DNA from: Ignavibacteria bacterium UBA2373
Lineage (GTDB): Bacteria > Bacteroidota > Ignavibacteria > Kapaibacteriales > UBA961
Length of the DNA stretch: 64,000 bases
Direction: 5' to 3'
Assembly: GCA_002344005.1 (NCBI GenBank)
Contig: DDTD01000043.1
Span: 1,746 to 65,745, forward strand
Shown here: positions 3,483-27,218 of the stretch, piece by piece
Numbering within the stretch: position 1 is the first letter of the stretch
Layout: every line of letters starts with the position of its first letter
Notes under the pieces: generated by a model
Told to the model about the DNA's origin: nothing
Seen by the model: the letters and a program-made list of their open reading frames with translations, nothing else
Databases searched by the model: none
Position numbers and translations under genes: made by a program

Positions 3483-4046
3483 ATGAATACGGATTTCAAA
3501 CAGCTTTCGGATAGTGAACTCTGCACCCTTGTTTATCAAGGTGGAGAGTCAAGGAATGCTGCCTTTGAGGTATTATATGAGCGTCATTCGCCGCGAGTTT
3601 ACCTTTATTGCCGACGGATAATGGGTGAGGTAACTGTTTTGGATGATGTGTTTCAAGAAACATTTGTGCGTTTCTATAAGAGCTTACTTGTAGAGCGAGA
3701 AATGAGTAATGTGCCGGGCTATTTGTTGCGAATAGCACGGAATTTGTGTATTGCAGAAAAGGAAAAACCGCATAATCAAACAGTGGAATTCGATGAAACT
3801 CATGTATTGGGTCATGTTTCTTCGGTTGAATCGGATGAAATGCTTTCTTTGATTGATATGGCGATTACTATGTTGCCTGATGAGTTCAGAGAGGTATGGG
3901 TGATGAAGGAAAATATGGGTTTTTCGTACAATGAAATTGCCGATACATTGCAAACAACAATGTCAACGGTACGGACGCGGCTTTATCGAGCCAGAATGAT
4001 GATACGTGAAATTTTAGCTCCGTACATTACGGATTTAAATTCTTAA
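3483..4046 (+). CDS. ECF-type RNA polymerase sigma-70 factor
   Basis: Region 2 (DDVFQETFVRFYK) and a region 4 helix-turn-helix (FSYNEIADTLQTTMSTVRTRLYRAR) are present. The ORF track begins at GTG 3477; the ATG at 3483 is the more likely start. Confidence 0.85.
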   Translation: MNTDFKQLSDSELCTLVYQGGESRNAAFEVLYERHSPRVYLYCRRIMGEVTVLDDVFQETFVRFYKSLLVEREMSNVPGYLLRIARNLCIAEKEKPHNQTVEFDETHVLGHVSSVESDEMLSLIDMAITMLPDEFREVWVMKENMGFSYNEIADTLQTTMSTVRTRLYRARMMIREILAPYITDLNS

Positions 4047-17150: not shown

Positions 17151-17297
17151 GAGAGGCGAACCATTAAACAGTGAATAATGACATGGTTTTGCATCAATGG
17201 CATTATAAGTTTTGATATTGTTCTTATGAGAAAGGGGTCACTTGCCGCTTTCTTAATAATTTTGTAAAATTTTTTTCCTCACGTGCCCAAAGGGTAT

Positions 17298-20200
17298 TTT
17301 ATGAAAATGTTTCGATTATTTGTAAACGTTGCTTGCGCTGTATTGTGCGCAACGGTTACGCTTTTCTCTCAAACCAACCCCACGCCATATGATTTGTCAT
17401 TGGGTGATTATTCACTTTTGGCTTGGTCTCCGACAAATGCTGCGGGCGTTTATCCTCCGGGGATACGTTTCCATCGTACTGCGAATGGCAGTGCCGTTGA
17501 TCCCGGTTTAGCAGTGGAATTTACCACCGATTATACACTTGCCTATAACTTAACGGGCGGTGTACGTATCAATGGACTTGATAATGACGGATTCGGTATT
17601 GTCAATACCAGCAGCACAACAAATGGTCAACTTGGCGCAGCCGTCCTTGCACTCAATTGTGCAAATCGCTCGAATGTGACTGTGAGCTGGTTAGGTGGCA
17701 CTCTTACGCAAGGTGATGGTAATCCCACACCTCGTGAATATGCCATCCGTTTACAGTACCGCATTGGTACTACGGCGGCATGGACTGATGTGCCGGGACC
17801 AATCGAATATACCTCAGCCGGAAAAACAAATGGACATACACAAACATTCAGTACTGTATTGCCAATAGCAGTAAACAATGAACCCGTTGTGCAATTGCGT
17901 TGGAAATATTATTCGGCAGCAGCGAATAGCGGTGGTCAGCGTCCTCGCTTGCGTTTGGATGACATCGTCGTGACAAGTACTTCTGCATTTGGTACGCCCA
18001 CAGCATTGAAAATTACTTCCATCACCCCAAGCTCACCTTCTTCTACAAGCACATTCGCTGTGACTGTACAATCGGTGAATGCTTTGGGTAATCCTGTGAA
18101 TGTGCCAACGGAAACATCATTTTCTTTATCACGCTTTGCGGGTACGGGTACTTTAGCCGGAACATTAACAGGCACAATTCCGGCAAATCAAAATTCAGTA
18201 ATCGTCAGCGGGGTAAGTTATAATGTGGCGGAAAGTGGTGTGATTATTCTTGCTTCGCGTACTGCCGGTGAGTTATTGACTGATGGTCAAAGTGCCCCAT
18301 TTACAGTCACCCAAGGAGCAACGCAGACTGCTTTAATTGGCATTCAAACCAAAGGATATATTGGAAAAACATTTCAGACATTTACTGTTGAAGCACGCAG
18401 ACAAGATAATAGTGTTGATCCAAATTATACAGGTAATGTCACCGTCACCGTGGCAAGCGGTACAAATTCTGTTATCGGTACATTGACCAAACCATTAGTG
18501 AATGGAATTGCAACATTTAATGATATTCGTTTTTCTGCTGAGGGTACTTATACCTTACGCTTTTCAACAACAGGGTTAAGTTCCATAGACTCACCGCCCA
18601 TTACCATCAATCCTCGCATTACGATGCAAGATGTGCTCATTCCTCAAGTGGTAAAATCTACATCCAATTTGACTCGTGTGCCGGCATATGCTTTGGTACG
18701 TTTCGATAATCTCTTCCCCAATACGACATATCGTTTCATGACTTCGGGTTTAGAAAATCGTACTCTGATTACCTTTGGTGCAGGCAATAATCTCCATTAT
18801 TCTGCCGAAACCAATTCTTTCAATTATTCCTCCAATAAGACATTAACCTCTACATCCGTTCCGCCGGATTATTCAACCTTTATCACCGGTCCGGGTGAAA
18901 CATCCAAATCAGTTTGGATTAATATTCTCACAACAGGCAATACACGCTTTGCTGAAGGTAATTCTATGTGGTGGAGAGTCTTTTTATCGGATATTATTGG
19001 TGGCACACCCGATACATTAACCACAGTAGCTGCCAGCCGATGCGTTGAATTCGGTTCTTCAACCACACAAGCAACAGGTATTTTTGATTCGCAAAGTGGC
19101 GCTACTCCTAAAAACATTATCTGTCTCTATAATAATGAAGAGGGAACAGGTAATCCAGTGGCAACTGCATTGGTGCAAGATGACGGTACGGTGATTTTCC
19201 GCACTTTCGGTACAAATAATGTCGTAACAACCAAAGCCGTTGATTTTTATGAAGCATTAGATCAAGTCGCGGGAAGTTGGGTTACACTCATTCCCAATAA
19301 TTTAACAGGCGGCATTAAGCGCGTCGAAGAACGCCGCTTATCCGATGGTGAGATTGTACGTTTTTATACAGATGCCGATGGTGTATGGTCAACCGTTAAT
19401 ACTGTCAGAACATCATCCGGTATTACAGCTATTGATTTCCGCACGCCTCAATTGACCGTCACTTCGCCTACAGCAGGGCAGGCAATATGCGCACTCACCG
19501 ACCAACAAATTCGTTGGACTTCACGTGGTGTGAGCAATGTGAAAATTGATATTACACGCAATGGAACAGGATTCTCTCCCATTGTTGCTTCCACCGATGG
19601 ATTTGCTCAACTCTATGATTGGTTTATTACCCATGCAGAAAATGATGGCGCAACATATCAAGTGCGTGTTACCGACAATGAACATCCTATGGTGAGCGGT
19701 TTATCCCAACAATTCTCTATCACATTACCGCCTCGATTATTATTCCAGCCAATTTCACAAAACAAATGTATTGGCGACACTATTCTTTTGCGGGTTGGTA
19801 CCGAAGGAACAGCAACGGCATATCAATGGTTCAAAGATGGTCAGCCATTAACGGGCGCAACAACAAATGTTTTGCGTATCCTTTATGCAAGAGAAACCAA
19901 TACAGGAAAATATCAAGTCCGTGTCTCCGGTACATCCATCTGTGGCGATATATGGTCTGACACTGCAATCGTCTATGTCACTCCAGAGCTAACCATTCTC
20001 AAACAACCACAAGATGCTGTCGCACAATTGGGCAAAACACTTTCGCTTTCTGTGGAAGTCATGGGTACGGACAAACATAGATATCAATGGTTCAAAGGTA
20101 ATGTTGCCTTGCAGAACAGCACACGCATTTCCGGCGCACAAACCCCGAATTTGATTATCCGTGAGTTCAAAGCTACTGATAATGGCACTGACTATTTCTG

Positions 20201-21338
20201 CCGCATTTTTGCCGAAGGAAATTGCCAAATCAAAGATACTCGTCGCATTAATGTCGGTCCTTCATCCATTACTTTAGCAACGCAACCCGACACATTGGTT
20301 GCTGCATGCGAAGGGCTACCTTTCACCATGCGTGTTACCACCACTACCGTTCCTGCTGATTTACCATTGCGTTTCCGTTGGTTCAAAGGCAATACAGAAT
20401 TAACAGACGGTAATGGCATAACAGGTGCAACGACCAATACTATAGCATTTGCAAACTCATCCGCAGCAATCGCCGGAATTTATACCGTAAAAGTAGAAGC
20501 ATTATCAGGCAATGCCACAAATCAATCGCACAATATTCGTGTGGTGCTTGGCGATAAACCGCGTTTTATTATTCAGCCGCGTTCACGTGAGGTCTGTGCC
20601 GGAGAATTATTCGTTCTCAATGCCGACGCAATATCCAATTCGCTCATGGAATATCGCTGGATACGCAATGGAGTGCTTTTACCCGACAGAACAAATTCTT
20701 TTGCATTACAATTCGATACTGCCGGTCGCCAATACTTCTATCGTTGTATTGTCACAACCGAATGTGGAAGCGACACATCGGACTTATGCACAATCACAAC
20801 AACAGCATTGCCAACCATCACACAGCAACCGCCTAAAACATTGGCAATAGAGCAATCAAAATATGGTCGTTTGACAGTCGGTGCATTTGCCTCACGAGCA
20901 TTGCGCTATTCGTGGGTCAAAGACGGCAAAGCCATCGAAGGCAATAATTCTCCCGTTTTAGAAATTGCCATCGCAACCAAAAAAGATGAAGGCAAATATT
21001 GGGTGAATGTGATAGGGGATTGCGATACTCTAAGCAGCGACACAACCATCGTCACCGTCACTGCGCCATCATCGCTCAGCGAAGAAGAAACACAACGATT
21101 TGTCACGCTCTCGCCCAATCCGGCACATTCCTTTGTCACAGTATTCGTGAATCCATTGCTCAAACCATCCGCAATGCGTATCACTGATATGATTGGCAAA
21201 GAAATCATGCGCTTTGATGCTCAACAAATCAGCGAATCCATGCAAATAGATGTGCAGAACTTTATGTCCGGTCAATACTGGATTACCCTTCAATCCGACC
21301 AAGGCATACTTGTCTTGCCATTGCATATCATGAAATAA
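17298..21338 (+). CDS. very large secreted protein with about 5 Ig-like (I-set) domains and a T9SS type-A C-terminal sorting domain
   Basis: It has a signal peptide (MKMFRLFVNVACAVLCA) and repeated W/FKxG...GxYxVxV Ig-like modules. The C-terminus (LSPNPAHSFVTV...MSGQYWITLQSDQGILVLPLHIMK) matches the Por secretion-system C-terminal domain. The ORF track starts at GTG 17283. Confidence 0.75.
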   Translation, partial: FMKMFRLFVNVACAVLCATVTLFSQTNPTPYDLSLGDYSLLAWSPTNAAGVYPPGIRFHRTANGSAVDPGLAVEFTTDYTLAYNLTGGVRINGLDNDGFGIVNTSSTTNGQLGAAVLALNCANRSNVTVSWLGGTLTQGDGNPTPREYAIRLQYRIGTTAAWTDVPGPIEYTSAGKTNGHTQTFSTVLPIAVNNEPVVQLRWKYYSAAANSGGQRPRLRLDDIVVTSTSAFGTPTALKITSITPSSPSSTSTFAVTVQSVNALGNPVNVPTETSFSLSRFAGTGTLAGTLTGTIPANQNSVIVSGVSYNVAESGVIILASRTAGELLTDGQSAPFTVTQGATQTALIGIQTKGYIGKTFQTFTVEARRQDNSVDPNYTGNVTVTVASGTNSVIGTLTKPLVNGIATFNDIRFSAEGTYTLRFSTTGLSSIDSPPITINPRITMQDVLIPQVVKSTSNLTRVPAYALVRFDNLFPNTTYRFMTSGLENRTLITFGAGNNLHYSAETNSFNYSSNKTLTSTSVPPDYSTFITGPGETSKSVWINILTTGNTRFAEGNSMWWRVFLSDIIGGTPDTLTTVAASRCVEFGSSTTQATGIFDSQSGATPKNIICLYNNEEGTGNPVATALVQDDGTVIFRTFGTNNVVTTKAVDFYEALDQVAGSWVTLIPNNLTGGIKRVEERRLSDGEIVRFYTDADGVWSTVNTVRTSSGITAIDFRTPQLTVTSPTAGQAICALTDQQIRWTSRGVSNVKIDITRNGTGFSPIVASTDGFAQLYDWFITHAENDGATYQVRVTDNEHPMVSGLSQQFSITLPPRLLFQPISQNKCIGDTILLRVGTEGTATAYQWFKDGQPLTGATTNVLRILYARETNTGKYQVRVSGTSICGDIWSDTAIVYVTPELTILKQPQDAVAQLGKTLSLSVEVMGTDKHRYQWFKGNVALQNSTRISGAQTPNLIIREFKATDNGTDYFCRIFAEGNCQIKDTRRINVGPSSITLATQPDTLVAACEGLPFTMRVTTTTVPADLPLRFRWFKGNTELTDGNGITGATTNTIAFANSSAAIAGIYTVKVEALSGNATNQSHNIRVVLGDKPRFIIQPRSREVCAGELFVLNADAISNSLMEYRWIRNGVLLPDRTNSFALQFDTAGRQYFYRCIVTTECGSDTSDLCTITTTALPTITQQPPKTLAIEQSKYGRLTVGAFASRALRYSWVKDGKAIEGNNSPVLEIAIATKKDEGKYWVNVIGDCDTLSSDTTIVTVTAPSSLSEEETQRFVTLSPNPAHSFVTVFVNPLLKPSAMRITDMIGKEIMRFDAQQISESMQIDVQNFMSGQYWITLQSDQGILVLPLHIMK

Positions 21339-21365
21339 AACACTTAGCAAAACTCTCATAACAAA

Positions 21366-21400
21366 GCTCATTGTCACACAGGCAATGGGCTTTTTTATTT
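21366..21400 (+). terminator. rho-independent terminator of the T9SS cargo gene
   Basis: Stem gctcattg/caatgggc (with one U-G wobble pair) is followed by TTTTTTATTTT, 28 bp after the stop. Confidence 0.6.
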
Positions 21401-21414
21401 TGTAGCCACAGAAT

Positions 21415-22020
21415 TTCCCTCAAACCAACCACAAAGTATTCAATCCCGAAGGGATGATATAGTAATAGGAACAAGTCCATAGCAAAACCAAATCCCAACG
21501 GGATGACATACACAATGACTATACCGCTCCTTCGGAGCTACGGATACTTTCTCTGGCTTCATTGTCTATGAATATATCGCTCCTTCGGAGCTAATTCCAT
21601 CATCAACCAAAAACAATCGCCTTCCAACCACAAACCACAACCATCCAAAATTCCCCTCTTGAGGGGTGTCCGAAGGACGGGGTGGATAAACAAAACCGTA
21701 TCCATATTTCATTCAATCCCAACGAGATGATATAGTAATAGAAAACCACATTCTCCCCATCCAACCACATTTCATTCAATCACAACGGGATGATATAGTA
21801 ATAGAAAACCATATTATCCCCATCTAACCACATTTCATTCAATCCCGAAGGGATGATATAGTAATAGAAAATCATATTCCCTCAAACCAACCACAAAGTA
21901 TTCAATCCCGAAGGGATGATATAGTAATAGAAAACCATATTACCCCAAACCAACCACATTTCATTTAATCCCAACGGGATGACATAGTAATAGGGGAATC
22001 ATTGACAATTGACAATCAAC
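21415..22020. repeat. tandem array with an exact 63-bp period (5 complete units from 21706 to 22020, plus a 54-bp partial upstream copy), each unit carrying a GC-clamped triloop hairpin
   Basis: The unit consensus is atttcattcaatccc-RAN-gggatgatatagtaatagaaaaccatatt followed by a variable 14-16 nt tail (cc..aaccac). Unit starts are at 21706, 21769, 21832, 21895 and 21958. Sequence 21415-21468 is a perfect 54-bp copy of 21877-21930. Stop codons occur in all six reading frames. Confidence 0.85.
21469..21705. other. unique hairpin-rich segment embedded in the 63-bp array; candidate structured non-coding RNA (ncRNA)
   Basis: It carries two copies of GCTCC-TTC-GGAGC (21526-21538 and 21579-21591), a CCCCT-CTTG-AGGGG hairpin (21653-21666) and a GTCC-GAA-GGAC hairpin (21668-21678). 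It has no coding potential. Confidence 0.3.
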
Positions 22021-22248
22021 CTAAAAATACTATCTAACAAGCTAAAAATACTATCTAACAACCTAAAAATACTATCTAATAACCTAAAAACATAATCTAA
22101 TGACTTAAAAATATTATCTGACAAGCTAAAAATGTTATCCTATGACATAAAAACATAATCCAACAAGCTAAAAATGCTATCTGATGACCTAAAAATACTA
22201 TCTAATGAGCTAAAAATGCTATCTGACAACCTAAAAATGCTATCTGAC
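22021..22248. repeat. 11 tandem direct repeats with an exact 21-bp period (consensus ctaaaaatactatctaacaag), giving phased A5-6 tracts
   Basis: Unit starts are at 22021, 22042, 22063, 22084, 22105, 22126, 22147, 22168, 22189, 22210 and 22231. The array ends about 90 bp upstream of the start of the 22339 gene. Confidence 0.9.
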
Positions 22249-22338
22249 TTGTTGGAACATGATTTTTTTGTCTTAGAATTTGGTTTATTGTCTATTGTAT
22301 AGTATTTTTGCTTTATATATATTTCATTGAGGATTATT

Positions 22339-23508
22339 ATGGCTGATGTTAAACGTACATTTTCTATGCCCTATGCAGAATTAGTAAGCTTTGCTAATAT
22401 GTTATGTCAAAATTTGACGACAGATTTGGCTTTATTTGCTGATTATGGCGTGACTGCGCCTAAAATTGCTGCTTTGCAGGCATTGTCTGATGCTTTTGAG
22501 GCGTTCCCGTCGGATCAAACATTTGTGTATCAGATGATGATTGCCACTGAAGATAAAAATGCTAAACGTGATGAGCTTATTAAGCTGATTAAGTCTTTTG
22601 CGGTGAGGTTTGCGGCTGTGTTCGGGTTCGATAGTCCGCGTTATAAGGGCTTGAAAACAAGTAATATAGGGTTGCAAACGGATTTGAATGTGTTGGCTAC
22701 TGCTCGTTTTGTGGCGCAGGAGGCGGAAAGCTCTTTGGCGCAGCTTGCTTCGGAGGGCATAACGCAGGCAATGGTGGATAATTTTGTTGCCGAAGCGAAT
22801 GAGTTTGAGCAATTGATGTATGCACAAAAGTCGGCGAAGATGTTGCGCTCGGTGAAAACGGATGAACGCGCTACGAAGGGCAATGAAATTTATACTTTGA
22901 TTGTGAAATATTGTTCGTATGGCAAGCAAATTTTCGAGGCGGGCACTGCTAATTATGAAAAATATGTGATTACGGATAGTTATGTGCCGCAAACGCCTCC
23001 GCAAGCACCGGAAACGCTGTTTTATCAAAATGGCGAGCTTTCTTATAGCGAAAGTGATGGGGCATCGAGCTATAAAGTGGAGCGCAATCCCACTCCGACG
23101 GATGAAAATGCGTGGATTATTGTCTATGAGGGCGATGAAACGGAGGTTGCGGTTGGTCAAATTGGCGATGGTATGCGCATGAGGGTCTGGGCACGTAATG
23201 ATGCCGGCTTCTCGGTGAATCCAAGCTATTCGGTATATAGTGTTGTGTTTTTGAATGTGCCGAGTAATTTCCATTTTTCTGCCGGAACGCTGTATTGGGA
23301 TGCGGTTGATTGGGCTAATGGCTATGAATTTGAGTCTTCATTGAATCAAACAGAGTGGGAAGTGTTGAGCAATCAAAATGTGTTGGAATATACGCCTGTG
23401 CCGGGTTCGGGTATGGTGTATTATCGTGTGCGGGCAATGTATGGTAATGTGCATTCGGATTATGCTGCGGTGATTGGTATTGATTGGGGTAATGTGGTGA
23501 ATGGGTGA
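22339..23508 (+). CDS. hypothetical protein: N-terminal alpha-helical domain of about 220 aa plus two FN3-like domains; no signal peptide
   Basis: A GAGGA Shine-Dalgarno sequence lies 5 nt upstream of the ATG at 22339; the ORF track begins at 22327. FN3 hallmarks are present (YKVERNP...MRMRVWARN, and GYEFESS...MVYYRVRAMYGN). The coding strand is strongly G+T-rich. Confidence 0.6.
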   Translation: MADVKRTFSMPYAELVSFANMLCQNLTTDLALFADYGVTAPKIAALQALSDAFEAFPSDQTFVYQMMIATEDKNAKRDELIKLIKSFAVRFAAVFGFDSPRYKGLKTSNIGLQTDLNVLATARFVAQEAESSLAQLASEGITQAMVDNFVAEANEFEQLMYAQKSAKMLRSVKTDERATKGNEIYTLIVKYCSYGKQIFEAGTANYEKYVITDSYVPQTPPQAPETLFYQNGELSYSESDGASSYKVERNPTPTDENAWIIVYEGDETEVAVGQIGDGMRMRVWARNDAGFSVNPSYSVYSVVFLNVPSNFHFSAGTLYWDAVDWANGYEFESSLNQTEWEVLSNQNVLEYTPVPGSGMVYYRVRAMYGNVHSDYAAVIGIDWGNVVNG

Positions 23509-23641
23509 GGGGAGAGTTGATGCTTTTAATCCAACAGAAATGGAATGGCAATAGGGGAAACGGAATTTATATGTAATCAATTAAAATAAAGTGAGAATTT
23601 ATAATACAATTTTGTAGTCATATCATATTTAGAAGGAGATT

Positions 23642-24058
23642 ATGGTGAATCAAATATTTCAAATTTCTAATGATAATTTATGGAATTTAATTAATGACCA
23701 TTTTGGAAATGGTGGAGGGGTCTATAAAATTATTGCTATGAGTGATAATAAACCTACAGCAATAAACAGATTTATTGGCATAGACACAACGGGTGTACTT
23801 TATATAGGAAAAGCAGACTCTTTTGTGGATAGAGTAATTACTTTAAAAAGGTCACTATTACCTGATTATACTGATACGAATCATAAAGTTGGTAAAGTAT
23901 ATAAGGAACATCCAATAATTGCAGCACATTTTCCACTTGAAAATTTATATGTTGATCTTCAAGCAGATGACAATCCGGAAAACCTTGAAAGTATATTGAT
24001 TGATGAATATTTTAAAAAATACGGTGAGGTCCCTCCACTAAATGCAAATCAGAGTTGA
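23642..24058 (+). CDS. hypothetical small protein (138 aa) with a weak GIY...YIG-like motif pair
   Basis: It has an AAGGAG ribosome-binding site. The motifs GVYKI and LYIGKA are separated by about 26 residues, which is longer than in the canonical GIY-YIG nuclease domain. Its AT-rich composition differs sharply from the flanking GT-skewed genes. Confidence 0.45.
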   Translation: MVNQIFQISNDNLWNLINDHFGNGGGVYKIIAMSDNKPTAINRFIGIDTTGVLYIGKADSFVDRVITLKRSLLPDYTDTNHKVGKVYKEHPIIAAHFPLENLYVDLQADDNPENLESILIDEYFKKYGEVPPLNANQS

Positions 24059-24094
24059 TTACATAATTTTTATTAATGTTAACAAATAAAATTT

Positions 24095-24134
24095 AGGGCA
24101 GTTCAAAAAGAGCTGCTTTTTTTTTGTTTGAAAA
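24095..24134 (+). terminator. rho-independent terminator (copy 1 of a duplicated terminator module)
   Basis: The sequence agggcagttcaaaaagagctgc is followed by T9. It lies 37 bp after the stop of the 23642-24058 gene. Confidence 0.6.
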
Positions 24135-24208
24135 TGTAGTATATTGCATTTGAAAAAGGTTCCCGCGCGTTTATGAATTAGGGGAGTCGTAAGGGAAATC
24201 TTATCAAT

Positions 24209-24247
24209 AAGGGCAGTTCGCAAGAGCTGCCCTTTTTTTGTTTAGAA
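24209..24247. terminator. rho-independent terminator (copy 2, likely bidirectional)
   Basis: gggcag-ttcgcaagag-ctgccc is followed by T7. It overlaps the stop of the convergent outer-membrane-protein gene. Its sequence is near-identical to copy 1. Confidence 0.6.
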
Positions 24248-24883
24248 GTAAAGTCTTGCGGTGATGAAAGTGGAGGTATAGAGTGCTGTTGTGTTGGATG
24301 TTGAAGGGCTTAGTGCTGCGGGTTCTATTTTGGGATTGCCTTCATTGTAATAATTGAGTTGCGCTTCGATGCCGAGCGAGAATTTTTTTCCTAAGAAGTA
24401 TTCGCCTCCGATTGTTGTTGCTATGTTGATAGCTGTTGTATGGACTGATGTGGCATTGATGTCAGTGGCGGTGTTGAGTTCGGATTTTTTTGCGGTGAGT
24501 ATTGTGGAAGGTCTGATGCCGATATTGATTTGGAGATTGTCTGTTATGGTTGATGTGTAGAGTATTCCGATGCCGATTCGCATTAGTGATTCTGATTGAG
24601 TTTGTGTGGCTGTGTATTGTTGATCATTAGATTCGCTTTTGTATGAAGTTTGACTTAAGCCGAATACGGGTTCGATGCGGAGGTGTTGTATGATGTCAAT
24701 GGGTATGAGAAATTCGGGTAGAATCATTGCTTTTTGCGCTGCTGCATTTTCTTTGATTGGTGCTATGAATGAGAGTGCTGCACCTAATCCAATGCGGAAT
24801 GAAGGTTGTTGGTTTTGTGCTTGGAGGTTTGTGTGTATGATGATTGCTGAAAGCAGTGCAATGATGGCAATTTTGTTATTCAT
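24242..24883 (-). CDS. outer-membrane beta-barrel protein (OmpW/porin-like family)
   Basis: It has a signal peptide (MNNKIAIIALLSAIIIHTNLQAQ), alternating hydrophobic beta-strands, and a C-terminal aromatic residue (ARLYF). Confidence 0.7.
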   Translation of the reverse strand: MNNKIAIIALLSAIIIHTNLQAQNQQPSFRIGLGAALSFIAPIKENAAAQKAMILPEFLIPIDIIQHLRIEPVFGLSQTSYKSESNDQQYTATQTQSESLMRIGIGILYTSTITDNLQINIGIRPSTILTAKKSELNTATDINATSVHTTAINIATTIGGEYFLGKKFSLGIEAQLNYYNEGNPKIEPAALSPSTSNTTALYTSTFITARLYF

Positions 24884-25010
24884 GATGTATGGAAATAGAG
24901 AGTGATTGAAGAGTATTTATGCTAAGATAGAGAAAGTTTGTGAGAAAGAGTGTGTGGTTATTGTTGATTTGTATGCAGTTTTGTTTGTGGCGTTCTAATG
25001 AAGTAATGGC

Positions 25011-25943
25011 TTGTTCGTCAAGGTTGGACATATTGTAGGGAAGAAGTCATTGGAAGATTCACGAAAATATTTGCGTCCGGAGGTTGTAGCGCAGCTTTCG
25101 AGTATTGAGTTGCGTGCTCGGCTTGTGGTTGAGGGTTTTATTACGGGTTTGCATAAGTCGCCGTATCATGGATTTAGTGTTGAGTTTGCGGAGCATCGTC
25201 AGTATCAGCCGGGTGATGATTTGCGTTATATGGATTGGAAGATAGTTGGTCGTTCGGGTCGTTATTATGTGAAGCAATTTGAGGAGGAGACGAATTTACG
25301 AGCGATGATTTTTTTGGATTGCAGCGGTTCTATGCGTTATCAGTCGAAGGGTCATATACGTAAGTTTGATTATGGAGCTTATGTTGCGGCAGCTTTGGCT
25401 ATGTTGATGATGAAGCAGCAAGATGCAGTTGGTCTTGCATTGTATGATCGGAGCGTGCGTTCATTTTTGCCATCTCGAAGTAAACAATCATATATTCGTG
25501 AGTTAATTAAGTCAATCGGGTCGGCAGAGCCATCGGAGCAAACGGGCACGGCAGAGGCATTGAATGGTTTGGCAGAGCGTATGGGTCGTCGTGGATTGGC
25601 AATAATTATCAGCGATTTTTTTGATGATACGGATTCGATAGTGCAGGCATTGAAGCATTTCCGTCATCGTCATCATGAGGTGATAGCGATGCAGATATTG
25701 GATCCTCGTGAGCTTGATTTTAAGTTGGGAGGCGATGTTACGCTTATTGATATGGAAACGGGCGAGAAGTTAATGACGCAACCGCAGCATATAGGAGCTT
25801 CGTATCGAGAGGCATTGCTTGCGCATAATGCAACGATAAAGCGTGAATGTTTTCAACGTGGTATTGATTATATATTGATAGATACTTCGCAGCCATTTGA
25901 TATTGCTTTGCGTGAGTATTTGGCTCGTCGTCGTCGTTTGTGA
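25011..25943 (+). CDS. DUF58 domain protein (vWA-like, of the type usually associated with a MoxR ATPase)
   Basis: The DUF58 signature is present (GxHxSxxxGxSVEFAEHRQYQPGDDLRYMDWKIVGRSGRYYVKQFEEE). The start codon is TTG. Confidence 0.8.
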   Translation: MFVKVGHIVGKKSLEDSRKYLRPEVVAQLSSIELRARLVVEGFITGLHKSPYHGFSVEFAEHRQYQPGDDLRYMDWKIVGRSGRYYVKQFEEETNLRAMIFLDCSGSMRYQSKGHIRKFDYGAYVAAALAMLMMKQQDAVGLALYDRSVRSFLPSRSKQSYIRELIKSIGSAEPSEQTGTAEALNGLAERMGRRGLAIIISDFFDDTDSIVQALKHFRHRHHEVIAMQILDPRELDFKLGGDVTLIDMETGEKLMTQPQHIGASYREALLAHNATIKRECFQRGIDYILIDTSQPFDIALREYLARRRRL

Positions 25944-25952
25944 TTTTTTTAT

Positions 25953-27218
25953 TTGTTTGATATTGTGAGTGTTATGGGATTAGTGGCTTTTACGGAAATT
26001 GGCAGCGTACTGATGATGCGTTCGTCGAGTAATCGTTTGTCGGGTTCGGCTATGAATGATATTGGTGTGTTGCGCAATGCTGCAATTGTGTTTGATGAGC
26101 AAATACGCTGGGTTGGGAGTATGGATGATTATGTCGCTGGTCGGACAGCGGGACAATGGTCGAATGTGAGTGAGATTTCGCTGAAAGGTCATTGTGTGAT
26201 GCCGGGTTTTGTTGATTCGCATACTCATATAGTGTTTGCGGGTAGCCGTGCGAATGAATATGGTCGTCGTTTGCAGGGTGTGAGTTATCAGCAAATTGCT
26301 TCGGAAGGCGGTGGGATACTTTCCACGATGCGTGCAGTGCGTGATTCTTCTGTGGAGGAATTGGCAGACATGGGAATCCGTTATGCTTTGTCGGCGATGA
26401 AGTATGGCACTACGACTATAGAGGTTAAATCGGGTTATGGTTTGAGTGTTGCGAGTGAGCTGGCGCAATTAAGAGCCATTCGCTTGGTACGTGAACAAGT
26501 GCCGATGCGAGTGATGTCCACATTTTTGGGAGCTCATGATATTCCGCCGGAATATAGAGATAATCGTGCGGGTTATATTGATGTATTGTGTGAGGAGATG
26601 TTACCGATTATTGCCGAAGAAGGTTTGGCGGATTTTTGCGATGTATTTACCGATACGGGTTATTATACGATAGCCGAAACAGAGTATATATTGGGCAAAG
26701 CTGCTGATTATGGTCTTAGAAGTAAGGTGCATGCCGATGAGTTGAGCTATGTGGGCGCGGCAGAGTGTGCGGTGCGAATTGGAGCAATTTCAGCGGATCA
26801 TTTATTGTGCATATCGGAACAAGGCATGAAAAATATGGCATCATCGGTTACTGTTGGTACATTATTGCCGGGCACAGCGTATAATTTGCGATTGCCGTAT
26901 GCGCCTGCTCGTGCCATGATTGAAGCGGGTATGACAGTGGCATTGGCAACGGATTGCAATCCGGGTTCATGTCTGAGTGAGAATATGCAAATGATGATTT
27001 CGCTTGCTTGCACGAATATGCGTATGACCGTAGAGGAGGCATTGGCAGCGAGTACAATTAATGGAGCGGCTGCATTGGGCTTAACCGATAAAGGTCAGTT
27101 ATCTCCCGGTAAAGATGCTGATATGATTATTATGTCGAATGAAGAATATGCGAATATTGCTTATCATTTTGGAGTGAATCACATTGAACAAGTTTGGATT
27201 AAAGGAAAAAAACAATGA
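25953..27218 (+). CDS. hutI: imidazolonepropionase
   Basis: The sequence GFVDSHTHIVFAGSRANEYGRRLQGVSYQQIASEGGGILSTMRAV closely matches the HutI metal-binding and active-site region. The length is 421 aa. Confidence 0.85.
   Translation: MFDIVSVMGLVAFTEIGSVLMMRSSSNRLSGSAMNDIGVLRNAAIVFDEQIRWVGSMDDYVAGRTAGQWSNVSEISLKGHCVMPGFVDSHTHIVFAGSRANEYGRRLQGVSYQQIASEGGGILSTMRAVRDSSVEELADMGIRYALSAMKYGTTTIEVKSGYGLSVASELAQLRAIRLVREQVPMRVMSTFLGAHDIPPEYRDNRAGYIDVLCEEMLPIIAEEGLADFCDVFTDTGYYTIAETEYILGKAADYGLRSKVHADELSYVGAAECAVRIGAISADHLLCISEQGMKNMASSVTVGTLLPGTAYNLRLPYAPARAMIEAGMTVALATDCNPGSCLSENMQMMISLACTNMRMTVEEALAASTINGAAALGLTDKGQLSPGKDADMIIMSNEEYANIAYHFGVNHIEQVWIKGKKQ

Follow-up and report, generated by a model that had tools for sequence, protein, structure and literature searches.

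A candidate DNA control element, apparently undescribed: arrays of exact 21-bp period conserved upstream of an uncharacterized gene family in Bacteroidota and Ignavibacteriota/Kapabacteria

Why should eleven copies of one short sequence, each exactly 21 bp long, stand in front of a single bacterial gene? The question is raised by a 64,000-nucleotide stretch of DNA from Ignavibacteria bacterium UBA2373 (GCA_002344005.1, contig DDTD01000043.1, positions 1,746 to 65,745; hereafter the window), in which such an array lies in an intergenic region of ~1 kb upstream of a gene for a protein of 389 residues. An earlier note on this DNA, made from its letters alone, had taken the repeats to be either a strongly curved segment or an iteron-like array of binding sites for a dimeric regulator. 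Comparison with related loci indicates that period and position are conserved across the gene family, and that neither the sequence of the units nor their A-tracts are. The array is apparently a conserved and so far undescribed DNA control element and not a product of chance, and no description of the association between array and gene was found in the literature searched.

The repeat itself was confirmed as real. Tandem Repeats Finder (TRF) calls it at 22017-22245 with period 21, 10.9 copies, 77% matches, 0% indels and a score of 227, together with super-periods of 42 and 63 bp, and a repeat search of the window gives a start-to-start spacing of 21 for all 11 copies, which bears out the eleven direct repeats of exact period described earlier. 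Their previously proposed start at 22021 holds, whereas the last unit reaches 3 bp beyond the proposed end at 22248 (Table 1). According to the unit table, TAAAAA is present in 11/11 units and units 1-3 and 9 are almost identical; the helically phased A5-6 tract ascribed to every unit was likewise found, as AAAAA in all eleven at exact 21-bp spacing. The 17-mer CTAAAAATACTATCTAA, allowing up to three mismatches, occurs nine times in the 64-kb window (0.40 expected from shuffles), always within the array and nowhere else, and a metagenome search with this 17-mer gave one match per locus among the matches listed (80 loci), consistent with chance. Eight independent assemblies of the window species show zero mismatches to the window. 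Five of them cover the intergenic region in full, the other three stop within the repeats, and short-read assembly could mask some copy-number variation among them.

Three familiar kinds of repeat were considered and rejected. A contingency locus, in which a variable number of tandem repeats drives phase variation, does not agree with the lack of repeat-number polymorphism in the eight same-species assemblies (five spanning the array). Clustered regularly interspaced short palindromic repeats (CRISPR) have spacers, which the contiguous head-to-tail units of the window lack. For palindromes of the repetitive extragenic palindrome or bacterial interspersed mosaic element (REP/BIME) type, or of the miniature inverted-repeat transposable element (MITE) type, there is no dyad excess, no RNA structure and no further copy of the unit in the window.

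The evidence that carries the finding comes from relatives of the protein encoded downstream. Counted over all sources, 89 loci from Bacteroidota and Ignavibacteriota/Kapabacteria encode relatives; beyond the orthologs and relatives examined first, a scan of one genome per species had yielded 80 loci, including ones from Chryseobacterium, Epilithonimonas, Chitinophaga, Sunxiuqinia, other Bacteroidota and Ignavibacteriota/Kapabacteria. Most loci derive from metagenome-assembled genomes (MAGs), some evidently mislabeled taxonomically, and they are phylogenetically non-independent. The MAG titles at L027, L028, L036, L045-L047, L051, L052, L054, L058, L063 and L069 name Gammaproteobacteria, Chloroflexota, Hyphomicrobiales or Thermoplasmatales; on contigs that carry the cassette of the Fibrobacterota-Chlorobiota-Bacteroidota (FCB) group, such labels are probably binning or labeling errors.

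TRF detects a period-21 array upstream of the gene in 76 of the 89 loci, with 3.3-18 copies; 32-568 bp (median about 130) separate its end from the gene. The 58 kb within 700 bp upstream of family genes contain 84 arrays of period 21, 42 or 63, whereas the rest of these loci, 582 kb in all, contains 7, an enrichment of more than 100-fold. Seven loci without a TRF array have 570 bp or more of sequence upstream, and six of these show a lag of 21, 42 or 63 among the top autocorrelation peaks, a count that sets aside L093 and L103, which carry 7-bp arrays, and the partial match L031; the exception, L087, peaks at 28/14. The earlier note had offered absence of the repeat from orthologous loci as one part of a refutation, and the opposite was found: an array stands upstream of almost all relatives.

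The sequence of the units, by contrast, is free. Orthologs at 97%, 90%, 84% and 83% identity and relatives at 32-37% all have an upstream array of 21-bp period, often in differing genomic contexts, and their units are different or unrelated, for example gttaaaaatgtcatcaaagag, cagacttcctcaagagcttta, gcggactacctcaaaagcatg and accttggaaagacgaggaaaa. Depending on the threshold, 73 arrays fall into 29 to 40 unrelated clusters of unit sequence; paralogs within one MAG carry unrelated units, and some MAGs hold up to about nine copies of the cassette. No motif is common to all arrays, the only signal being a weak, strand-biased enrichment of CGGA in 9/29 clusters. Arrays keep one orientation with respect to the gene (118 direct versus 4 reverse-complement similar pairs), and the units have no dyad symmetry (score 5.0 versus 5.12 for shuffles).

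Two variants of repeat organization were seen in passing. In a Kapaibacterium paralog (L057), a 21-bp array at 3599-3733 is followed at 3742-3906 by an inverted copy of its units (12/12 reverse-complement match), the only palindromic pair of arrays at any locus. Tandem arrays of 7 bp flank some family genes (L054 5231-5301; L058 5175-5621; L103 150-228 and 1658-1765; L093 3462-3533), often as inverted pairs such as (AGTCATT)n...(AATGACT)n, and 22 such period-7 arrays lie elsewhere in family loci. They recall the intergenic heptamer direct repeats described for Beggiatoaceae (PMC4679880).

Array and gene form a cassette of roughly 1.5 kb that is found in differing genomic contexts. Homology between the window and L027 or L028 (97% and 96% protein identity) covers only array and gene (window 22030/22087-23515), the flanks being unrelated, and the homology of the L009, L027 and L028 cassettes starts just right of a short ATTGACA repeat at the left junction of the window array. 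Window and L027 share 97% of protein and 92.5% of third codon positions, but only 80% of the array and 79% of the spacer; window and L018 share 85% of third positions, but 87% of the array and 98% of the spacer. These patterns indicate a recombination mosaic. The window locus is also contained in a 776-kb chromosomal MAG contig (GCA_016713455.1, activated sludge), and other copies lie in complete chromosomes. No neighboring gene is conserved across 87 loci, the module being a single gene, and no relatives were found in viral contigs.

Whether individual bases matter can be judged in Chryseobacterium, where the family gene is single-copy and the locus syntenic. In an alignment of 13 species, about ten collinear units are seen, with indels in 21-nt steps, ending at an invariant junction, ATCAAGTACAAT. 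Conservation pooled over ten unit ranks at 16 Chryseobacterium loci (160 units; Table 1) reveals an invariant pattern, TCAA-N4-T-N2-G, every 21 bp across the array, and this position-specific conservation extends to the distal, otherwise degenerate units. Between species, the identity of unit consensus sequences is 0.77, versus 0.66 for third codon positions. Such uneven conservation at a rigid 21-bp register is as expected of sites arrayed along one side of the duplex for a single sequence-specific reader; it is predicted neither by selection for shape alone nor by a neutral satellite. Epilithonimonas has TGAT where Chryseobacterium has the invariant TCAA, without a change of register.

Another repeat element may be associated with a GIY-YIG gene in this genus. 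At eight Chryseobacterium loci (L062, L070, L076, L080, L085, L086, L102 and L105), the space that separates the family gene from a small GIY-YIG gene (L062:4986-5282; Pfam PF01541, E = 5e-16) holds, ~690-2100 bp past the gene start, tandem arrays of 144-185 bp with 3-5 copies. Upstream of the C. hispalense array, L062 458-3406 holds an open reading frame (ORF) of 982 residues with a reverse-transcriptase-like box by eye ('YGRYVDDIFIV'); Pfam gives no hit on this ORF, and the other loci do not conserve it.

At the window locus, the array lies directly upstream of a promoter, its end separated by 27 bp from a TTTG. The consensus of Bacteroidota housekeeping promoters is TTTG-N19-21-TAnnTTTG, as reportedly described by Bayley and colleagues in 2000 and Vingadassalom and colleagues in 2005, and we take the TTTG and the TAttTTTG that follows it to be -33 and -7 elements of this type. 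The earlier note had placed a TAnnTTTG-like -7 element about 50 bp past the array and a GAGGA ribosome-binding site before the gene; both are present, the former at 51 bp. From the -7 element, transcription would start near 22317, which would put the array at about -66 to -296. L018, L027, L028 and L009 share the arrangement TTTG-N19-20-TAttTTTG in spite of a diverged spacer around it, and a T7-T9 tract occupies the place of the window T7 tract in L027, L028 and L009. An exact TAnnTTTG lies between array and gene for 18 of 73 arrays, three times the background density, and never inside an array. On the other side, an intrinsic-terminator-like hairpin follows the upstream gene of the type IX secretion system (T9SS), so that the window array is not simply read through from upstream.

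Table 1. Coordinates of features at the window locus, and base conservation by unit position in Chryseobacterium
Feature	Position	Strand	Remarks
T9SS-type immunoglobulin (Ig)-repeat gene	17283-21338		Upstream of the 21-bp array; Por_Secre_tail domain
Intrinsic-terminator-like hairpin	21363..21393	+	13-bp stem, then T-run; past the T9SS gene
63-bp array	21702..21993	+	4.6 copies; hairpin ATCCC-NNN-GGGAT in each unit; ends 27 bp before the first 21-bp unit
7-bp repeat ATTGACA	22001..22016	+	2.3 copies; left junction of the 21-bp array
21-bp array	22021..22251	+	11 direct units, head-to-tail; consensus CTAAAAATrCTATCTrAyrAs
Within-unit pattern of the 21-bp array			Conserved: TAAAAA(T), ATC, A17; variable: positions 9-11, 15-16, 18-21
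42-residue ORF, MLSDDLKILSNELKML...	22174..22302	+	Gene-finder call inside the array, in L001-L008
T7 tract	22263..22269	+	Between array and -33 element; read from the sequence
TTTG, -33 element, Bacteroidota sigma-A type (presumed)	22279..22282	+	20 nt upstream of the -7 box
TAttTTTG, -7 element (presumed)	22303..22310	+
GAGGA ribosome-binding site	22329..22333	+	ATG of the cassette gene at 22339
Cassette gene	22339..23508	+	389 residues, isoelectric point (pI) 4.55; 215-residue all-helical N-terminal domain, then two FN3 domains
Chryseobacterium unit, T	Unit position 2		93%
Chryseobacterium unit, C	Unit position 3		85%
Chryseobacterium unit, A	Unit position 4		96%
Chryseobacterium unit, A	Unit position 5		90%
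Chryseobacterium unit, T	Unit position 10		98%
Chryseobacterium unit, G	Unit position 13		97%
Chryseobacterium unit	Other unit positions		41-74%

The 63-bp array that the earlier note saw adjoining the 21-bp units does so across a short gap. It is excluded from the blastn homology with L009, L027 and L028 and lies outside the module conserved across the family. The hairpin ATCCC-NNN-GGGATG occurs in seven plus-strand copies at 21442-21981, five exact and two with one mismatch (12 hits on both strands versus 0.6 expected), all in this single intergenic region of the window; five copies form the core of the 63-bp (3 x 21) array, and L009 and L039 also have one copy upstream of their arrays. A ...CGCTCCTTCGGAGCTA hairpin, with the stem GCTCC/GGAGC, occurs twice, at 21515-21540 and 21568-21593. 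At the equivalent place, L009 has three copies of GTTCCTACGGAAC in a ~68-bp repeat, with a compensatory C-G to T-A change in the stem that hints at a conserved hairpin element. Downstream of the cassette gene, an ORF at 23642-24058 (138 residues) carries a GIY-YIG-like motif by eye ('GVLYIGKA') and has no Pfam hit; its region (23512-24100) is absent from strain L014, which is otherwise 97% identical to the window from 24212 on, a ~0.6-kb indel directly after the cassette gene. The GC skew, taken over 1-kb steps, is unusually strong, +0.32 to +0.43, at 1-2000 and 23001-27000, versus about 0.05-0.15 elsewhere.

How might an array keep its period while its sequence changes? The explanation toward which we lean, tentatively, is that it is a one-faced, helically phased lattice of sequence-specific protein-binding sites that would control the adjacent promoter at the DNA level. 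The array would be the cis-regulatory half of a small self-contained cassette of array, promoter and one gene, and would act as double-stranded DNA: as the unit is exactly 21 bp, or two helical turns, all units turn identical bases to one side of the helix. Such a one-sided lattice would comprise 3 to 18 equivalent non-palindromic sites, from about 30 bp upstream of the -33 element. A sequence-specific protein would bind these sites head-to-tail and cooperatively, and the resulting nucleoprotein filament or wrap would set promoter activity, either activating or silencing. Because the units lack dyad symmetry, this reader would sit on them head-to-tail as on iterons and not as a symmetric dimer; of the earlier proposal of an iteron-like array for a dimeric regulator, the iteron-like part fits the comparative data better than curvature does, whereas the dimeric part would not apply. 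The core of the site in the window subfamily is an A5 tract, so the window array is also strongly curved, which would help wrapping. Binding by a protein, an effect on transcription and the nature of the binder are what we infer from sequence comparison.

The candidate binder, a weak one, is the cassette protein. Its gene product is the only factor that always accompanies the array, and the joint travel of array and gene, together with the unrelated units of paralogs, points to a specificity factor encoded by the cassette, that is, to this protein itself. Few close homologs of the 389-residue protein exist. Pfam gives no hit on it; the two C-terminal FN3 domains, which agree with the FN3 gene named in the earlier note, were found by structure prediction and fold search. 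The N-domain was modeled confidently (predicted local distance difference test score, 92) and has no Pfam hit and no fold match in PDB or BFVD at E <= 0.001. It ends in ...EAKYNDY[VI]IY and defines the family; after it comes nothing (230 residues in total, as in Chryseobacterium), one or two FN3 domains, or other beta domains. The most conserved segment, residues 29-48 (DLALFADYGVTAPKIAALQA) with an invariant G37, looks helix-turn-helix-like by eye. A profile search returned many more members, in counts inflated by FN3 hits; the family comprises many distinct clusters at 50% identity, from Chryseobacterium isolates to Kapabacteria MAGs, and all named members are annotated 'hypothetical'. A bolder idea is that each member reads its own private 21-bp lattice through an undescribed DNA-binding fold, giving orthogonal protein-DNA pairs on mobile cassettes of 1-1.5 kb whose paralog arrays diversify against cross-talk; we regard this as doubtful.

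Several observations weigh against a lattice of sequence-specific sites. Paralog-specific units argue against a shared host factor, which leaves the model in difficulty should the binder be something other than the cassette protein. In the cassette protein, searches of Pfam and NCBIfam give no DNA-binding domain, and the protein is acidic: its pI is 4.55 as a whole and 5.04 in the N-domain, and 138 homologs have a median of 4.86. The change from TCAA to TGAT is accompanied by only six diagnostic protein substitutions, including Q114R. The window has an inverted partial unit (22294-22309; 88% complementary to the unit, p about 0.025), but across the family such operator-like copies are at chance level (4/68 at p <= 0.05). 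The mosaic pattern suggests that arrays can be swapped between near-identical genes; most loci come from MAGs, and shared ancestry makes the comparisons non-independent. Co-variation of protein and unit between Chryseobacterium and Epilithonimonas was also considered and was not convincing.

The main rival is intrinsic curvature that needs no protein, a possible though rather unlikely alternative in which in-phase bends would make the array a portable curved upstream element that resembles an UP element and serves to wrap RNA polymerase or to sense supercoiling or temperature. Curvature was predicted with two dinucleotide wedge models, Bolshoy-Trifonov and De Santis, with provisional parameters. 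In both predictions no other 231-bp stretch of the 64 kb is as curved as the window array: 18.2 deg/turn versus 7.8 +/- 1.35 for 628 window tiles (Bolshoy-Trifonov) and 11.3 versus 6.7 +/- 1.2 (De Santis), no tile reaching the array in either case; its end-to-end/contour ratio is 0.16 (Bolshoy-Trifonov). A shuffled 21-mer of equal composition, repeated 11 times, matches this curvature in 9% (Bolshoy-Trifonov) and 25% (De Santis) of trials, so that much of it stems from the period itself. Curvature would also account for the value of the period, 21 being the smallest whole number of base pairs to give an integer number of 10.5-bp turns, and for arrays that seem exchangeable between nearly identical genes; the free variation of units among lineages and paralogs is as expected if only shape matters. 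There are A runs inside the units and a weak 10.5-bp sub-periodicity (A lag-10 z = 1.9).

Across the family, the case for curvature becomes thinner. The 64 non-redundant arrays have a predicted curvature only modestly above that of their flanks (mean z 1.5 and 0.76), and about one in four is more curved than 95% of the tiles there. Under Bolshoy-Trifonov they rank somewhat above column-permuted versions (17/64 in the top 10%), but under De Santis they do not (mean rank 0.45). An A- or T-run of at least 4 is present in only 29 of 76 homologous arrays, which makes the two-helical-turn period, and not the A-tract, the conserved feature; the arrays of L021, L054 and L069 are among those free of A-tracts. 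Neither the near-invariant single bases in ten units at 16 Chryseobacterium loci nor the near-confinement of arrays to one gene family is explained by shape alone. The strong curvature proposed in the earlier note is thus partly supported: it holds in silico for the window locus, and it does not hold as a general principle of the array family.

It is improbable that the array is a recombination or mobility end of the cassette, persisting because the cassette moves and not because of expression. The boundaries would suit such a role, since homology across contexts starts at or inside the array and stops about 8 nt past the stop codon, as would the mosaicism between upstream part and gene and the shifts of copy number in whole units. 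However, no recombinase, transposase, target duplication or conserved neighbor is associated with the cassette, the strict 21-bp period is left unexplained, and the syntenic, vertically inherited Chryseobacterium locus has kept its array with position-specific conservation.

Just as improbable is an array that is transcribed and acts as RNA, for instance as a leader in which an RNA-binding protein, perhaps that of the cassette, finds repeated sites. Its conserved orientation, a modest gene-strand bias (A > T in 52/76 arrays, purines above 50% in 54/76) and a distance of 280-570 bp from the gene at some loci, which leaves space for a promoter upstream of the array, are in keeping with this. In the window subfamily, however, the conserved promoter lies downstream of the array and a terminator upstream; an exact 21-nt register has no motive in single-stranded RNA and has one in duplex DNA. 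No structure is predicted for the array RNA (z = -0.36 and +1.0), and an Rfam search of 20500-23000 gave only two sub-threshold chance hits. An RNA element was rejected on these two grounds, the lack of structure and of an Rfam hit.

A functionless satellite inherited with the gene by chance is very improbable. Unit sequences drift freely, and the 42- and 63-bp super-periods point to unequal crossing-over; but the comparative data largely refute this reading, with the same period retained over two phyla and about 30% protein identity, the concentration upstream of one family, the very uneven conservation of positions within units and a sequence that does not differ among the eight independent assemblies (the intergenic region being spanned fully by five and partly by three).

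The reading with least to recommend it, a present or recent heptad-repeat coiled-coil peptide (21 bp = 7 codons; LKILSNK in the window), can draw on a period divisible by 3, on an intact 77-residue frame of LK[IM]LS[ND]x heptads in L018 and on the similar plus frames of L019 and L021 (DYLKSM versus DFLKSF), but was rejected, as the window plus frame has two TAA stops and its best minus frame one; L027 and L028, with the same protein as the window, are stopped in every frame; L018 alone of five window-type cassettes examined is open; 7/76 arrays have stops in all six frames and no strand is consistently open (63 and 63); unit variation lacks 3-periodicity (0.489 versus null 0.506, p = 0.88); the open frame shifts against the conserved TAAAAA core between window and L014; most open frames have no upstream start codon and almost no flanking ORF; and the conserved Chryseobacterium positions (2-5, 10, 13, 20) follow no codon structure. 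Gene callers do put ORFs of 42 to 100 residues on several arrays, a point in favor of the peptide. In the window this ORF (Table 1) is most likely an artifact of the repeat, and the public calls on either strand elsewhere (L018 178-411; L010 102-341; L009 3593-3895; L026 2087-2326) are probably annotation artifacts of the same kind, which flags a systematic error.

If the array is a lattice of binding sites, which known systems does it resemble? Iterons occur in theta-replicating plasmids and the phage lambda origin (R6K, 22 bp x 7; P1, F, pSC101, RK2). Like the present arrays, they are several non-palindromic direct repeats of about 17-22 bp at 21-22-bp spacing on one helix face, often bent, and they adjoin and are co-inherited with a single gene and have lineage-specific sequences. 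By contrast, the arrays described here come without a Rep initiator (no winged-helix or Rep hit in Pfam, NCBIfam or PHROG, the N-domain being a fold orphan), lie in chromosomes at up to about nine copies a genome, with no phage or plasmid relatives found, and show an inverted half-site operator at the promoter no more often than chance across the family. Identity with replication-origin iterons was rejected: the spacing agrees, whereas a Rep gene and a plasmid or phage location are missing.

In type II/III plasmid centromeres, such as parC of R1 (2 x 5 11-bp repeats) and parC of pSK41 (20-bp repeats), the adaptor ParR coats the repeats cooperatively into a curved or solenoidal complex and also autoregulates transcription. 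Helically phased direct repeats at the promoter of an adjacent operon are common to both; the module described here is a single gene with no partition NTPase, no ribbon-helix-helix adaptor gene and no dyad symmetry in its units. Phased A-tract upstream DNA, that is, UP-like and bent activating regions, is matched in the window by an A5 every 21 bp over about -66 to -296, by the highest curvature of the 64 kb and by a T7 just upstream of the -33 element. However, such regions are not known as exact tandem repeats or as tied to one protein family, and most of the homologous arrays have no A-tracts. Promoter-proximal repeats include the ToxR-bound TTTTGAT heptads upstream of ctxAB, the 7-bp repeats of Haemophilus influenzae hmw and the 21-bp repeats of simian virus 40 (SV40) and human T-lymphotropic virus 1 (HTLV-1). 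As in those cases, tandem units, in SV40 and HTLV-1 also of 21 bp, lie directly upstream of a core promoter, and copy number could scale output. Those systems are single-locus with known factors, whereas here the period is kept across diverged loci with unrelated sequences, and copy number is not polymorphic among the eight same-species assemblies (five spanning the array). The array is of a known kind, phased upstream repeats or iteron-like arrays, and its family-wide association with one gene family is apparently new.

A strictly 21-bp-periodic upstream array is a defining companion of a widespread, uncharacterized protein family of the FCB group, and offers the first experimental handle on the function of that family. 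A conserved period with free sequence is rare in bacteria and points to a mechanism that depends on helical phase, testable in Chryseobacterium, which is cultivable and genetically tractable. The arrays may supply portable, possibly orthogonal, promoter-control parts for Bacteroidota; and if each protein did read a private lattice, this family would provide a large natural collection of paired proteins and DNA addresses, each pair orthogonal to the others.

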